In this document: positions 3,217 to 64,000 of the stretch, one piece after another
How positions within the stretch are numbered: the first letter of the stretch is position 1
How the letters are laid out: the number at the start of each line of letters is the position of its first letter
Assembly: GCA_016186795.1 (NCBI GenBank)
Contig: JACPKY010000001.1
Span: 129,357 to 193,356 of the forward strand
Direction of reading: 5' to 3'
Source: Candidatus Gottesmanbacteria bacterium
Lineage (GTDB): Bacteria > Patescibacteriota > Microgenomatia > 2-02-FULL-39-11
Length of the DNA: 64,000 nucleotides
Translations under genes and position numbers: made by a program
Notes under the pieces: model-generated
The model's database searches: none
What the model saw: the letters and a program-made list of their open reading frames with translations, nothing else
Told to the model about the DNA's origin: nothing

Positions 3217-3225
3217 AATAACGTG

Positions 3226-3299
3226 CGCCCCTACCCAGACTCGGACTGGGAATCGCCCCGTTAGGACCGGGGTGCTCTATCCAATTAAGCTATAGGGGC
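3226..3299 (-). tRNA. tRNA-Arg (anticodon CCU)
   Basis: Reverse complement folds as cloverleaf: acceptor GCCCCTA/TAGGGGC, D-arm GCTT..GAGC, anticodon stem CCCCG/CGGGG with loop GUCCUAA, T-arm CCCAG/CTGGG. CCA not encoded. Confidence 0.85.
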
Positions 3300-3355: not shown

Positions 3356-3432
3356 CGGGGTGTAGCGCAGTTGGCTAGCGCGCATCGTTCGGGACGATGA
3401 GGCCGGCGGTTCAAGTCCGCCCACCCCGACCA
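3356..3432 (+). tRNA. tRNA-Pro (anticodon CGG), CCA encoded
   Basis: Acceptor CGGGGTG/CACCCCG, D-arm GCGC/GCGC, anticodon stem CATCG/CGATG with loop UUCGGGA, T-arm GGCGG-TTCAAGT-CCGCC, 3' ACCA. Confidence 0.85.
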
Positions 3433-3465
3433 ATCAAAACTTAACGATTTTTCAGGACGAGAGGA

Positions 3466-3500
3466 TTGCCCGCCCTCGCTTTCCGCCGCCGCCGAATTTC
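3466..3500. repeat. Left terminal inverted repeat (35 bp, perfect)
   Basis: ttgcccgccctcgctttccgccgccgccgaatttc is the exact reverse complement of 4910..4944. Confidence 0.9.
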
Positions 3501-3692
3501 ATATTTCGCTTTGCGAAATACACCGCAGAAAAAAGAGGAGTTGTGTTTGCCCCTCCCGCCCATGCGCACACAACAAGATTTTTGCTCCCTTTGGCCCACT
3601 AGAACGGGGTATGCGGAACCCATCTCTGCTAACAGTTCAAAAAATGGCTAAAGCTATTGGAATAAGTCCAAAAGATTTAATAGAATAAAACT

Positions 3693-4877
3693 ATGGACAA
3701 CTTTGAAAAACCATCAATAAATCCCGCGGAGCTTCAACCACAGCCAGAAGCTCAACAAGAAAAACCTCGCAAGGATGTTGAAGAAGTAAAAGAAGCGCAA
3801 AACTTTTTTCGTTCTCTTGGGCTCGCCGTGGAAAATGACGGTCTTATTACAAAAGAGCCGACCGAAGAGCAGCTAGAAAAGTTGCGCGAATGGCACGACC
3901 AAACAGGTGATGGTGGAATTGATATGCCAACGGGAAAAGCATTTTACGAAAAAGTTTTGCTCGCTATTTCTCTGTGGCGACAGCAGGAGGGCGAAAAAAC
4001 AAACTACCTTCTTGGAAAAGGCACAGGTGTTGAAGTTGCATTGCGGGGAAATATTGCGAGCAGGACAAAACGTCCTATTGAATTTTCTTATAGATCACAC
4101 AGCGATTTTGAATTATATGGTGTTGATTATGAAGCGGGAGAAAACGGCTCAAATTTAGGTGGTAAACCCGTATATATGGAATCGTTCGTAAGGGTTTTTG
4201 GGAATCAAGAATATTTTCCCGTTACTAAAACAAAGGGATTAAAAAATATCCCACCAACACTTTTACACGAAACGGCAGAGATTGTTGATTTCGGCGGCGT
4301 GTCCGCTCGTGTGCCACAACTAGAGCTTCTATTTTTGGATAAGTATATGTCTAGAGAAAGCACGCCTCGACCAGAAGGACATGATGCCGAATTACTTGCT
4401 AGGCAATATGTTCTAGACCGCGCAAAAACTCATCAATACTTAGACCAGCTCGTTATTGAACCGGCAGTCGCACAAATTCAGGCGCAGACTCAGAAAGATT
4501 ATCAGGGACAGTTGGATAGTATAAAAAGAAATATTACATTTACGCGACGAGAATTTGAAGAAGAAGGAATTGATCCCTCGCCGCAAGATTTAATTACGAG
4601 AATAAATGAGCCAATACAATCAATGCTTGATATTCACGGCACAGACACACGAGTTTCATATTCCGGTATTCGCCTGAATTTGTGGCAAGCACTTACACTA
4701 GAGCAAATTGATGCGGAAGGAAATGTTGTTGACCAAGAGTTTTTGCAAAAATTAGAAACGAGAGTAAAAGAAATGGAAATTGCCGCAATTGAAAGATATA
4801 AGAACAAACATCAAGAGTTGGATAAGCTCTTTGATGATATTGATAATGAGTTTGTGGAAGGAGAAAAGGCAGGATAA
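3693..4877 (+). CDS. Hypothetical protein (394 aa), sole cargo of the IR-bounded element
   Basis: Long clean ORF. Acidic, no TM or signal peptide. I recognise no catalytic motif. Confidence 0.6.
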   Translation: MDNFEKPSINPAELQPQPEAQQEKPRKDVEEVKEAQNFFRSLGLAVENDGLITKEPTEEQLEKLREWHDQTGDGGIDMPTGKAFYEKVLLAISLWRQQEGEKTNYLLGKGTGVEVALRGNIASRTKRPIEFSYRSHSDFELYGVDYEAGENGSNLGGKPVYMESFVRVFGNQEYFPVTKTKGLKNIPPTLLHETAEIVDFGGVSARVPQLELLFLDKYMSRESTPRPEGHDAELLARQYVLDRAKTHQYLDQLVIEPAVAQIQAQTQKDYQGQLDSIKRNITFTRREFEEEGIDPSPQDLITRINEPIQSMLDIHGTDTRVSYSGIRLNLWQALTLEQIDAEGNVVDQEFLQKLETRVKEMEIAAIERYKNKHQELDKLFDDIDNEFVEGEKAG

Positions 4878-4909
4878 AATTCAATGCGGCGCACCAGTTT
4901 TACTGGCAC

Positions 4910-4944
4910 GAAATTCGGCGGCGGCGGAAAGCGAGGGCGGGCAA
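4910..4944. repeat. Right terminal inverted repeat (35 bp, perfect)
   Basis: gaaattcggcggcggcggaaagcgagggcgggcaa is the reverse complement of 3466..3500. Confidence 0.9.
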
Positions 4945-5092
4945 AAATTCATTCCCCCCAACCCCCTTTCTTTTTGCCCGCCCGAGCGTCAGGTTTCGTT
5001 CCTGCCGCGCGAAGCGCGGCAATCCGTCGGGATTTTGTTCAAAAAAGGTTCGAGCGGCGTTCAGTAATTGCGACTGATCGATAGTTCATCCT

Positions 5093-5662
5093 ATGAAACT
5101 CATCCTTGCGTCTGCATCAGAGGGAAGGAAAAAACTCCTTTCTCTTTTTAAAATCCCTTTTAAAGCCATTCCCTCTATCATCAATGAAGAGGAAATTATG
5201 GGGAAAACCCCTCTTGAAACACTTCAACTTCGAGCAAAGAAAAAAGGAGAAGATATTGCAAAGAGAATTGATTCTACATCGTATTTGATTCTTTCCGCAG
5301 ACTCTGGAGCAATTGTAGGAAATGAGCTTATTGGAAAGCCAAAAAATCATGACGATGCCAAAAGAATATTGCAAAAACTTTCTGGAACCACCCATGAATT
5401 TATTACAGCTATCTATGCTGTTACACGAGATAAAGCGTGGGAAACCTATGAGAAAACGTTTGTGACATTCCGAAAGCTATCTGATAATGATATCAGACAC
5501 TATCTTTCGATAACAGACTATACACAATACGCAGGTGGATACGCTTTATTTGCTTCTCCACAGGATTTTGTCATCAAAACTGAGGGGTCTCTTTCCAATG
5601 TTATTGGACTCCCTTTAGAAAAGATTGTCCCGATCTTGAAAGAAAACAAATTAGTGCAGTAG
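5093..5662 (+). CDS. maf: Maf-like nucleoside triphosphate pyrophosphatase / septum formation protein
   Basis: LILASASEGRKKLL N-terminus. 189 aa typical of the Maf family. Confidence 0.8.
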   Translation: MKLILASASEGRKKLLSLFKIPFKAIPSIINEEEIMGKTPLETLQLRAKKKGEDIAKRIDSTSYLILSADSGAIVGNELIGKPKNHDDAKRILQKLSGTTHEFITAIYAVTRDKAWETYEKTFVTFRKLSDNDIRHYLSITDYTQYAGGYALFASPQDFVIKTEGSLSNVIGLPLEKIVPILKENKLVQ

Positions 5663-23761: not shown

Positions 23762-26700
23762 TAGAACTCCATTGCGTCCAAAAGAATCTTCAAATCATTC
23801 TGATCAACTTTCCCATCTCCGTTGAAGTCTCCATCTTGATGGCCACGGGTTGTCGTCCTACCGTTATTTCTTAACCAGATAGTATAGTCTACTCCATCAA
23901 CCCGATTATCACCATTCGCATCACCCAAGACTTGTGGTTTCGGGGTGGATGTTGCGGAAGGAATACCCTGAGAACGAACTGTTGGAGAAGGAATAACCGT
24001 TGGTATGCGAGTCGGGGTTGGCGATGCGACCGAACTCTCCGGTAGGAAAGTACTGCCAGCTGATGACCCTCGCTTTATATAAAACCATAGATGTGTCCCT
24101 TGCAAAGTATTCTCTGGACTATTGAGATAGTTTTTGTCGTTTATCGCAACAAAGATATTTGGTTGACAGGTGCCATCAGTTTTCCCATTCCCTGCTCTAT
24201 TTGGATACTCTTTCTTGGGATAGCGGACAACCCACCCAGTACAAACAAATCCATTCGGAGGTGTAAAGGTGATGGATACCCGTCCAGGATTTTTCTCATC
24301 AATTCGGAAGTACTCGGTCTTGTAGACCATATCAGACCGTGGTAAGAATCGTGTTTGAGGCTTTTGACAAATCCACTCGCTATTTCTCGTTCCACCCAAT
24401 TGGTAACTTACCTGAAGATCCTGAGATTGAGAAACTCCAGTGCATACTGGCGGCCGGTGACCCCAGAAAATAATATCTTGAAATGATGAAACTCCGCTTT
24501 CTGTCAAGGACTCATTTACAATAGTATTGGTATCGATAATTCTTCGCGTTTCCCGTATCTTCCCAACGACCGATCCCAAAGCAACTAGAGATGGTGAGGG
24601 AGTCGGCGTGCGTGTCACTGTTGGGGTGGGTGTTTTTGTTGCCGTCGGTGTTGGTGTCCGAGTCGCAGTAGGAGTGGCCGTTGGCGTGGGAGTTCTGGTT
24701 GGAGTTGGTGTTGCAGTAAGAGACGGTGTCGGAGTTCTAGTTGGAGTTACCGTTGGGGTGGGAGTACGTGTAGGTGTAGGACTCGGTGTTTTTGTCGGAG
24801 TTATTGTTACGGTAGGAGTTGCGGTTGCCGTCGGTGTTGGCGTACGAGTGGATGTCGGCGTAGGCGTACGAGTAGGAGTTGGTGTCCTTGTAGGTGTAGC
24901 AGTTGGCGAAGAAGTCACAGTAAGAAATGGCGTCGGAGTTCTGGTTGGGGTTGGAGTGCTTGAGGGAGTAACTGATGGAGCTATAGAAGGACTGCAGGTA
25001 CATAAACTATCATCTGGACATACATTATTTCTGCACTGCAAAACAAATGGGTCACAATAGAAAGATGTGCATTCACTATCGCTTGTGCAATAATTATTGC
25101 ACGAAAGATTTGTTACTGGAGATGGTGTCGGAGTAAGTGTTGGAGGCGAAACAAAAATCACGGTAACGGGAATAGAGGTAATAGCGCTATTTTGCCCAAG
25201 TCGAGCGATCACAAAAATATCGCCATTACCAGATTCCTGTGGAATAAATGATGTCAGATCACCACTTGTCCTGGTAAGGGTGCCAATGGCAAAGGGCTCT
25301 CTCGAACTTATCCCCCACTCATAGGTAACGCCTGAAAAGATCGGTTGAGAATTTATGTCATAGGCAAGAGCAGAAATATTTACAGGACTTCCTCCAAGAT
25401 CAACAGAAATAATCTCCGGATTAACTCTGACATATGCAAGCGTTTGACTAGGTGCTGGAGTCGGTGTAGGTGTTTTTGTGCTGGTTGGAGTAGGTGTTTT
25501 TGTAGGAGTTGGAGTCCTAGTAGGTGTAGTAGTCTGGGTTGGAGTACGCGTCACTGTTGGGGTGGGTGTTTTTGTTGGGGTTGGAGTTTTGGTTGGTGTT
25601 AAGGTATGAGTCGGAGTTATTGTCAATGTTGGACTTGTCGAAATTGACGGTATTGGTGTGAATGTGGGATACGCTGTCACAAAGGGAATTATCAACACTT
25701 GCGCGGTTGTCATGTAGTACCACCAGTTATTTTTGTGGCCTAAACTATCAACTCCGGATACATGAGGAACATGTGAGAACATCCATCGTAGATAATTGTA
25801 TTCACTATTTTCCGGACATCCCCATGTTTGACAATTTATATTTTGAGCTTCTTGAGACAGATTTGGATAAGAGGTAAAACTCTCACATTGCGAAGGTACT
25901 GTTTGACTATTTGCGTAATCATAATCAATATCGGCATTGGCAGGATTATGAGTGTCTCCACAGCCAAACACCGATTGACTGGAATAATTGTGTTTGTTTG
26001 AGCGGAAATCTCCCCAACTTATGCCATAGCTATTTCTTGTGTATCCGATATACCTATCAAAGATAGCTTCAGCTCTATGACCCATATCATGAAGCATGGA
26101 ATCCATCCCTCGTTCATAATTAAAGCCCATGATGTGAATTGGTCTTTGACAATTTACATTGGAAACGACTGGACCATTGGTCCAAAATGCTCCAGTACCG
26201 GCCATATTTGCTTCAAAGAAACCAGTTCGAGGCGGTCCAGTGATCCAAAGCTCATCTATCTCTCCCCGATTTACCATCTCGCAAATATTTTGTTCCAGTA
26301 AAATTTTAGTGTAATTGGCAAAATCATTACTTGGTGGCTCATTGCATGGACCTTTCCCTTCCAAACAAGCAAATAATGTTTCACCTGTATAGTCAAATCC
26401 ATTTTGTTTTTCCGGCATATCATCAAGTTCTCTTATTCCAACAATTTGATATTTCACCCGACCATGACTTACTTCCTCCAATTCGCGAGCATACTGATCT
26501 ATCTGTTCATACGGATTATTCCAATTGTAATAATCAATAAGAGATCCGTTATTTAGGGATGGAACTTTTGGGTTATAGATAAGGGCAAATACTCGCGGGA
26601 AAACATATTCTTGTTGCCCAGTTGGGGTAGGAGAAAGGAAGGGAGTCGGTGTAGATGATATCAAAGGATTTTGAGTCGGTGTTGGTGTTCTTGTAGGAGT

Positions 26701-60205: not shown

Positions 60206-64000
<3,795 letters not shown>

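Follow-up and report, generated by a model that had tools for sequence, protein, structure and literature searches.

The stretch of DNA analysed here, referred to as the window, spans 64,000 nucleotides of a Candidatus Gottesmanbacteria genome (GenBank assembly GCA_016186795.1, contig JACPKY010000001.1, positions 129,357 to 193,356); an exact match of its Maf protein likewise places the host among the Gottesmanbacteria. Two tRNA genes recognised by ARAGORN, tRNA-Arg(cct) on the reverse strand at 3225-3299 and tRNA-Pro(cgg) on the forward strand at 3356-3432, the latter also matched in Rfam, are followed by one arm of a perfect inverted repeat (IR), TTGCCCGCCCTCGCTTTCCGCCGCCGCCGAATTTC, which begins 33 nt beyond the tRNA-Pro gene and occupies positions 3466-3500 of the forward strand. 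Its reverse complement, identical at 35 of 35 nt, forms the right arm at 4910-4944, and between the arms lies a single gene on the forward strand (3693-4877) for a protein of 394 aa, henceforth the cargo gene; beyond the right arm comes the host gene maf (5093-5662, forward strand). The initial annotation of this locus, made from the sequence alone, regarded it as an insertion sequence (IS) with terminal inverted repeats and a possible new transposase. The repeat and the one open reading frame (ORF) that it encloses are confirmed; the segment from about 3431 to 5074 is probably something else, namely a 1.64-kb remnant of an integrated mobile element without a recombinase, from a family of small elements that are driven by a large serine recombinase (LSR) and target the 3' ends of tRNA genes, here that of tRNA-Pro.

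With up to three mismatches allowed, the repeat is present in the window exactly twice and in none of 100 shuffled sequences, and the pair 3466-3500/4910-4944 is the sole significant inverted repeat found by self-blastn in the 64 kb; apart from this pair, the window holds no further copies of the IR or of the element. The exact 394-aa protein is also encoded on four Logan contigs from different runs, each of 1445-1461 bp and each ending inside both arms, because a 35-nt IR breaks a k=31 graph. The same IR-bounded segment was thus recovered in four independent assemblies, and the structure is not peculiar to one of them. An assembly artefact was ruled out, the IR being present in the NCBI metagenome-assembled genome and in the four Logan assemblies, and homologous loci assembled with IDBA, MEGAHIT, and SPAdes having flanking arms as well. 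The reading of the short contigs as copies of a multicopy IS was dismissed too, as they end inside the arms in the way that k-mer graphs predict.

The ends of the insertion are revealed by comparison with other loci, labelled L005-L080, of which about 70 with the cargo gene were examined for a linked transposase or LSR. In a distant Gottesmanbacteria relative (L074/L075; Maf 66% identical) the gene order is MreB, PEGA, sortase, tRNA-Arg(cct), tRNA-Pro(cgg), and maf, followed further on by NDK and M16, and maf begins 7 nt after tRNA-Pro, as against 1.66 kb in the window; the window therefore carries an insertion of about 1.64 kb. With a slash marking the junction, the empty site of L074 reads ...CCCCGAC/AAAGATT ATG(maf), and the tRNA side of the window ...CCCCGAC/CAATC. 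The left attachment site, attL, is ...CCCCGAC/CAATCAAAAC, the tRNA 3' end being the integration target and the B arm of the site, and the right one, attR, is ...GTTCAGTAATTGCGAC/TGATCG....ATG(maf). The tetranucleotide CGAC, present at 3427-3430 on the forward strand in attL, where it is the presumed crossover region, and at 5071-5074 in attR, is common to four sites, these two, the empty site and the attP-like junctions of the relatives described below; the element therefore extends from about 3431 to 5074 (1,644 bp) and has no target-site duplication. Its ends lie 35 nt and 130 nt outside the IR. Judged from these alignments, the segment is an insertion relative to the syntenic relative, with att-like ends that it shares with LSR elements, and the initial view of the tRNA 3' end as an integration site holds good.

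The left terminal segment, CAATCAAAACTTAACGATTTTTCAGGACGAGAGGA (3431-3465, forward strand), resembles the outer end (P' arm) of the tRNA-Pro-side arm in recombinase-bearing relatives; in alignment A5, in which the window reads CCAATCAAAAC and L076 reads CCAATCTAAAC, the similarity is weak beyond about 12 nt (z 1.6-3.5). At the right, AGGTTCGAGCGGCGTTCAGTAATTGCGAC (5046-5074, forward strand) is a pseudo-tRNA-Pro 3' end, which comprises the P arm and the core of attR and marks the true right end of the insertion. It is conserved in L005, L076, L077, L078, and L080, where it abuts the P' arm as an attP-like junction. Nucleotide homology with L005, which encodes a protein 91% identical to the cargo protein in another host context, runs 130 nt past the right arm and ends at 5073, and the right-end 16-mer was found, among 713 kb of loci, only in the window, L005, and L076-L078, and later also in L080. 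Logan contigs with the maf gene of the window begin at 5045, which makes the 30-mer 5045-5074 a graph branch point in those samples, the sole hint of an excision or integration junction. At positions 3427-3432 the tRNA-Pro gene of the window encodes the 3' CCA (..CCCCGACCA), and that of L074 (L074:3986-3993) does not (..CCCCGACAA); the CA is supplied by the inserted element.

The association with tRNA genes is not confined to the window. Of 52 loci, 10 have a co-directional tRNA gene no more than 500 nt upstream of the cargo gene, the expectation being about 0.9, and the arrangement of tRNA, element, and pseudo-tRNA end recurs at tRNA-Thr (L022) and at tRNA-Ser and tRNA-Asp (L015/L049, L054, L066). 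Copies of the cargo gene without an LSR, bounded by tRNA-Asp or tRNA-Ser and a pseudo-tRNA end, contain little beyond the gene itself (L066:5694-7160, L015:1238-3700, L049:3727-6190). L066 has a relative with a recombinase, L054, at the same tRNA-Asp; the cargo genes of the two show 85% nucleotide identity, and long inverted arms are found in neither. Upstream of a cargo homologue in L023 (L023:5385-5867) there are two tandem copies of tRNA-Pro, which successive integrations may have left behind.

On the right, the arm makes up the inner end of a 164-nt terminal region (4910-5073) that is rich in secondary structure (z -2.5) and contains two GC hairpins. In the left arm, the core of the pair, a motif CGCCG..GAATTTC can be recognised that recurs in the arms of L005, L008, and L042. 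The hairpin GGGCGGGCAAAAA - 23-nt loop - TTTTTGCCCGCCC (4935-4983, forward strand) overlaps the outer end of the right arm, and the second, TGCCGCGC-GAA-GCGCGGCA, is located at 5003-5021 on the same strand. Of the additional GC-rich half-sites that had been pointed out, the one on the right proved to be a third exact copy of TTGCCCGCCC at 4974-4983, which pairs with the outer end of the right arm as a 13-bp hairpin; the other, at about 3547-3561, forms the loop of a hairpin conserved in relatives. The loop of the right-arm hairpin (4948-4970, 23 nt) is the reverse complement of its counterpart in an arm of L078 (L078:5559-5745), although the stems and the outer arm end are collinear in the two, which suggests small flips between the TTTTTGCCCGCCC stems.

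The 192 nt between the left arm and the cargo gene, at first taken for a leader, consist of a conserved palindrome and a hairpin, and then of the last 29 codons of a gene for an XRE-type helix-turn-helix (HTH) protein. The palindrome, ATTTCGCTTTGCGAAAT (3503-3519, forward strand), lies just inside the left arm and occupies the same position in L006, L008, and L009 (alignment A3); it may be the operator of the HTH protein. The hairpin GTTGTGT..(GC-rich loop)..ACACAAC (3540-3574, forward strand) is kept in the same three loci. The HTH remnant, LERGMRNPSLLTVQKMAKAIGISPKDLIE followed by a stop codon (3599-3688, forward strand), begins close to a deletion junction at about 3593/3594: in alignment A3 the window has a clean gap of about 192 nt, by which the promoter region and the first 40 or so HTH codons have been lost. 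An intact HTH gene of 67-73 aa is located directly upstream of the cargo gene in L006, L008, L009, and L037, and in L006 and L009 it overlaps the start codon of the latter. The intact protein has a Pfam match to HTH_3 (6e-19) and in PADLOC comes closest to the "control proteins" of restriction-modification systems; by analogy with these it would control the expression of the cargo on entry into a new host. In the window the cargo gene is co-directional with tRNA-Pro, 260 nt downstream of it, and only a weak promoter-like site is present, at 3657-3686. Since the promoter of the cargo gene itself is deleted, it may be transcribed by read-through from tRNA-Pro, or else from a weak internal promoter. 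Past its stop codon, the stem-loop CCAG-TTTTA-CTGG (4894-4906, forward strand), with compensatory changes in the stem in L005, L006, and L009, is predicted to be terminator-like.

The cargo protein has no match in Pfam (E<=10), NCBIfam, or PADLOC (E<=0.01) and no meaningful one in PHROGs, and a profile search against the sequences of the PDB returned nothing. Its AlphaFold2 model, built on 67 homologues, is of high quality (predicted local distance difference test, pLDDT, 94.4; predicted template modelling score, pTM, 0.88) and has a pol-beta nucleotidyltransferase fold with helical N- and C-terminal domains. The model resembles nucleotidyltransferase toxins and shows no similarity to RNase-H, HUH, or recombinase folds; a Foldseek search of the PDB and BFVD yielded nothing significant. 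The model confidently points to a pol-beta-type nucleotidyltransferase whose nearest counterparts are the MenT/AbiEii toxins.

In the cargo family residues D138, E173, K181, E211, D216, K217, R226, and D231 are invariant, E140 is present in at least 90% of the sequences, and two motifs stand out, GKGxGVExALRG...YRSHSDFELYG and PQLELLFLDKY...R....DAELL. Toxins of the DUF1814 type have four conserved motifs, of which I and II serve metal binding, the others being III and IV (PMC7450476). Candidate counterparts in the cargo family are G108xG110...S137-D138-F-E140, E173, D216-K217, and D231; several of these residues are invariant, and the spacing of motif I differs. The motifs of the cargo family are compatible with the four DUF1814 motifs (PMC7450476), without their equivalence being proven. 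By analogy with MenT/AbiEii and with the restriction systems controlled by C proteins in sister elements, the nucleotidyltransferase would be a toxin-like or defence cargo.

The family is a small one of 129 clusters at 50% identity among 1.84 billion representatives and spans bacteria of the Candidate Phyla Radiation (CPR) and DPANN archaea. Occasionally the protein is a domain of giant proteins: it is found within proteins of 2,198-6,099 aa (P0351, P0370, P0372, P0373), and in L042 (L042:2421-5444) it is fused into a protein of 1007 aa with a second nucleotidyltransferase-like domain at the N-terminus. Copies 79-91% identical to the cargo protein of the window occur in Magasanik-, Kaiser-, and Nomurabacteria, the host of the window being a Gottesmanbacterium, and these sequence relations show a horizontal spread of the cargo across CPR classes. 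The dN/dS ratios among close copies, 0.07-0.17, indicate that the protein is functional and under purifying selection; dS of the cargo gene is 0.3-0.6 against the nearest relatives of the window and 0.3-1.1 among the loci. A phage or plasmid origin was considered and rejected: tblastn gave no match in INPHARED or PLSDB, IMG/VR yielded no relatives, and the right-end motif was not found in IMG/VR either.

The recombinase expected of such an element is present in relatives. An LSR of 490-540 aa, with Resolvase, Recombinase, and Zn_ribbon_recom domains, adjoins the HTH-nucleotidyltransferase module in L008, L009, L022, L042, L045, and L054, and enzymes 84-93% identical to that of L008 sit at tRNA-Pro in L076-L080. 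LSR-bearing elements at the tRNA-Pro genes of other phyla have termini of the same type as those of the window. The recombinase family itself is large, with over 7,800 matches at E<1e-40 and 72-94% identity in Patescibacteria, Omnitrophota, Elusimicrobia, and Acidobacteria; many copies are on contigs of about 2 kb, and example genes are L008:1822-3294, L022:3722-5338, and L042:472-2052. Among the three tRNA-Pro loci whose cargo was examined (L076-L078), the LSR gene is accompanied in L076 by genes for an HTH protein, a methyltransferase, and a DEAD/ResIII helicase, in L078 by those for an HTH protein, a methyltransferase, and a HinfI-type restriction enzyme, and in L077 by an unannotated ORF only. 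Downstream of the LSR gene of L008, a Magasanikbacteria locus, there is a cluster resembling a defence island (L008:3291-6967), with an OLD/Gabija-like AAA ATPase, a GmrSD_N+HNH restriction enzyme, and methyltransferase fragments. In the window, tblastn with two LSRs of the family detected no homologue over the 64 kb, and the window copy is therefore a non-autonomous remnant or a satellite.

The loci with an LSR also disclose how the attachment sites are arranged. In L076, L077, L078, and L080 attL is tRNA-Pro ...CCCCGAC/CAAT..., and a central junction, ...GTTCAGTAATTGCGAC/CAAT..., is found inside the element; the general form of the internal junction in the LSR loci at tRNA-Pro is AGGTTCG.GC..CGTTCAGTAATTGCGAC/CAAT.... 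A pseudo-tRNA-Pro 3' end is thus joined there to the same arm that follows the tRNA, which identifies the junction as an attP-like site. The 3' end of the LSR gene faces the 3' end of the tRNA in all eight tRNA-adjacent loci (L022, L042, L054, L076-L080), and near-perfect inverted repeats of 73-158 nt flank the gene in seven of the eight, L054 having none, as well as in L008. Repeats of the same kind flank the cargo: they are 100% identical in L006 (at least 119 nt), L009 (208 nt), L010 (at least 95 nt), and L036 (at least 61 nt), 99.6% identical in L022 (251 nt) and 99.5% in L078 (187 nt), and are reduced to about 20 nt in L008 and to 35 nt, with 100% identity, in the window; across all loci arm lengths range from 17 to 251 nt. 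The outer arm ends coincide exactly with the att cores, where they share 4-7 nt with the tRNA end and with one another. The arrangement of a full element, as read from these sequences, is tRNA gene, arm X', LSR gene pointing towards the tRNA, arm X, arm Y, HTH and cargo genes pointing away from it, arm Y', and host DNA, where X/X' and Y/Y' are near-perfect inverted copies of att arms and the junction of X with Y represents an inverted attP-like site.

The right terminal region of the window is laid out like a Y arm, with an inner part, the two GC hairpins, and the pseudo-tRNA end. As only its inner 35 nt are repeated on the left, the 35-bp IR is a residual or minimal pair of cassette-flanking arms and not the terminal repeat of a transposon. 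What the window copy lacks is the LSR, arm X, and the outer 130 nt or so of the left Y; its short left arm would go back either to a deletion of these three or to a satellite that never possessed an LSR.

The arms appear to be dynamic. Those of L009 are 100% identical to each other, and L009 and L046 agree at 83% along the full 208 nt, with different flanks beyond; identity within a locus combined with divergence between loci amounts to concerted evolution, and it follows that the arms still recombine with, or convert, each other. The sequences of L045 and L009 are 100% identical, but in L045 the 3' end of the cargo gene is joined through the arm to the flank of the LSR gene, so that the two are inversion isomers. 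The assembly of L045 is distinct from that of L009, and the sample names suggest the same field site. Across species, cargo and LSR genes are arranged in tandem in L008 and L045 and divergently in the other loci. Flipping of the cargo cassette in relatives is therefore likely, if unproven. An explanation of the outer L009 arm as duplicated host sequence, with an ORF reading into it, was ruled out: L046 keeps the whole arm in another place, and the supposed ORF opposes the true recombinase gene. A search for an excised circle or for a convergent junction of cargo, arm, and recombinase yielded such a junction in L041 only, with a different recombinase. The sequence neighbouring the recombinase arm of L042 has an inverted copy of about 100 nt 5 kb further downstream (L042:2230-2329, L041:5178-5543). 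The fused cargo gene and two others are enclosed in this way, and beyond the copy comes the 3' end of a second recombinase gene, different from the first.

In the mechanism proposed for this family, the LSR would integrate the element by attP x attB recombination within CGAC, carrying a cassette that originally consisted of a small XRE-HTH regulator, similar to the control proteins of restriction-modification systems, and the nucleotidyltransferase. The arms would act as recombination substrates, by which they would be kept identical and the cassette could flip. Excision would generate the attP junction GTTCAGTAATTGCGAC/CAATCAAAAC and the attB junction CCACCCCGAC/TGATCGATAG, and a full element would then form a circle with a topology like that of the 2-micron plasmid. 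The window copy has retained attL, the inner 35 nt of Y, the cargo cassette, and the full 164-nt Y', and would be immobile unless an LSR were supplied in trans. The suggestion of a non-autonomous element with passenger cargo, also contained in the initial annotation, comes close to the evidence, and the segment is indeed acquired mobile-element DNA.

A bolder and rather unlikely extension of this mechanism would make the family an undescribed modular class, in which an LSR moves cassettes into tRNA 3' ends, each module is enclosed in perfect inverted copies of one att half-site arm, and every junction, of one module with another or with the host, is therefore an att site; modules could be flipped, swapped, or left behind as LSR-less satellites, excision would yield a circle of the 2-micron type carrying two inverted repeats with attP, and the cargo would represent a new MenT-like family common to CPR bacteria and DPANN archaea, with tRNA 3' ends as its possible substrate.

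Several observations weigh against the integrated-remnant interpretation or parts of it. The window holds no recombinase homologue, and neither a second copy nor an excised form of its element was observed. When positions 3431-3560 are set against the recombinase-flanking X arms, the two are collinear, but the similarity is weak and, over 3466-3560, not significant. Many distant homologous loci, and L037, L054, and L066 as well, have no IRs, hence these are not essential for keeping the cargo gene. Inversion is documented for one relative only, in which an assembler could take either path through a 208-nt perfect repeat, and, as the LSR gene has one and the same orientation in all eight loci beside a tRNA, it seems unlikely that the recombinase module flips freely in spite of its IRs. 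The role of the cargo in toxicity or defence is a prediction from fold and context, the protein missing the AbiEii family of Pfam and all PADLOC models, and the window tolerates an intact cargo gene without its HTH partner.

Among the competing interpretations, that of an autonomous IS, with the 35-bp repeats as terminal inverted repeats and the 394-aa protein as the transposase of a new family, would account for the single ORF between perfect IRs, for the movement of the gene between distant CPR lineages, and for the many close homologues on contigs of 1.3-1.7 kb. It is nevertheless very improbable. The last of these features is explained by the breaking of de Bruijn graphs at repeats, the predicted fold is that of a nucleotidyltransferase with its typical acidic and Lys residues and none of the RNase-H, HUH, or recombinase similarity of mobility enzymes, and no transposase was matched in Pfam, NCBIfam, or PHROGs. 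The canonical IS architecture perceived at first has likewise not survived: the boundaries of the insertion, as given by the empty site and by homology, are outside the IRs; no target-site duplication was detected at the window IR, whose flanks are GAGAGGA and AAATTCA, or at the L009 arms; the arms vary from 17 to 251 nt and are missing in some loci; and in relatives a bona fide recombinase is linked to the gene. An element resembling a miniature inverted-repeat transposable element (MITE), with cargo and with a DDE transposase acting in trans, fits an IR-bounded gene in a window free of recombinases. The position of the IRs and the lack of a target-site duplication count equally against it, and in the roughly 70 loci the cargo is linked to no transposase but to an LSR and to att ends formed by tRNA and pseudo-tRNA, so that the chance of its being correct is just as slight.

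Two further interpretations concern the arms rather than the element. If a read-through transcript from tRNA-Pro paired them, over 35 bp here and up to 250 bp in relatives, RNase III processing or silencing of the cargo mRNA might follow; the proximity and common direction of the two genes, the loss of the cargo promoter, the enclosure of the whole mRNA by the arms, and the structure-rich right region are all in keeping with this. Such an RNA-level function is nonetheless quite doubtful, given arms that are exactly identical, with neither G-U tolerance nor compensatory changes, whose outer ends coincide with recombination cores at tRNA ends, and which are of the type that also flanks the recombinase gene; Rfam offers no match. 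An inert relic, that is, two 35-nt copies left after the deletion of longer arms and serving no present function in DNA or RNA, is a far more serious alternative, though still an unlikely one. At least one clean deletion, that in the HTH gene, has affected the window copy, which has no recombinase and whose left arm is far shorter than the 164-nt right terminal region. On the other side, identity at 35 of 35 nt has been kept in spite of a cargo dS of 0.3-0.6 against the nearest relatives, the inner arm boundaries coincide with those of the sister clade, and L008, the closest locus with context, keeps a core pair of about 20 nt; none of these three facts is proof of a function. Elsewhere in the window, two clusters of direct repeats (24602-25577 and 62088-63541; 24-70 nt, 86-96% identity) are unrelated to the IR element.

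In its LSR relatives the remnant resembles the serine integrases and transposases of the phiC31, Bxb1, and TnpX class, sharing with them a protein with Resolvase, Recombinase, and Zn-ribbon domains, a short common att core, and the lack of a target-site duplication; it differs from them in that the window itself is devoid of an LSR. Systems of that class are not known to have an internal inverted attP-like junction or perfect inverted arms of 70-250 nt around the integrase gene and the cargo. The yeast 2-micron plasmid encodes FLP and has 599-bp perfect inverted repeats separating two unique segments. The analogy with it is topological only, recombinase family and host being different. Tycheposons (bioRxiv 10.1101/2020.12.28.424599) and CIME-type elements, representatives of the tRNA-targeting islands and their integrase-less derivatives, are similar in their insertion at tRNA 3' ends, in their flanks of a tRNA and a partial or pseudo-tRNA, in a variable cargo that includes defence genes, and in the occurrence of degenerate remnants. 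Tycheposons depend on a tyrosine recombinase, however, and not on a large serine one; the element described here is tiny, 1.6 kb, or about 3.5-6 kb with the LSR, and an inverted duplication of att arms around each module is not described for them in the searchable literature.

With the MenT/AbiEii (DUF1814) toxins (PMC7450476, PMC10435456) the cargo protein shares a predicted pol-beta nucleotidyltransferase fold resembling solved MenT structures; unlike them, it has no Pfam or PADLOC match, carries large extra helical domains, and is partnered by an XRE-HTH protein instead of AbiEi/MenA, its activity being predicted from the fold. Invertons (Hin/Gin/Pin; epigenetic invertons, PMC7672463; PinQ, PMC12529663) are alike in having a cassette between IRs, a serine-family recombinase next to it in relatives, and one relative in both orientations. 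The recombinase is, however, of the large type, as opposed to a small invertase, hix-type sites are far shorter than the arms, and the window has no recombinase; moreover, the cassette of the relatives carries its own promoter, so that no on/off logic is evident. In the searchable literature no description was found of inverted att-arm duplications in LSR elements, whether from CPR or at tRNA-Pro, or of this family of nucleotidyltransferases. The locus belongs to what is apparently an undescribed variant of the integrative elements driven by serine recombinases, of which it is a degenerate and non-autonomous representative.

As far as the window is concerned, the initial annotation has to be corrected: the supposed new transposase turns out to be passenger cargo, and the element is an object of a familiar kind, an island in decay beside a tRNA gene. 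The cargo constitutes a structurally confident but unannotated family of nucleotidyltransferases that is exchanged between very distant CPR lineages and DPANN archaea; little is known of the mobile elements of these organisms or of their systems of defence or addiction. The inverted duplication of att arms, identical within loci and diverging between them, is not explained by standard models of serine integrases and could be tested with cloned components. The LSR family, extremely widespread, highly conserved, and carrying restriction-modification and other cargo, may serve as a major channel by which genes move in the communities of groundwater and sediment.

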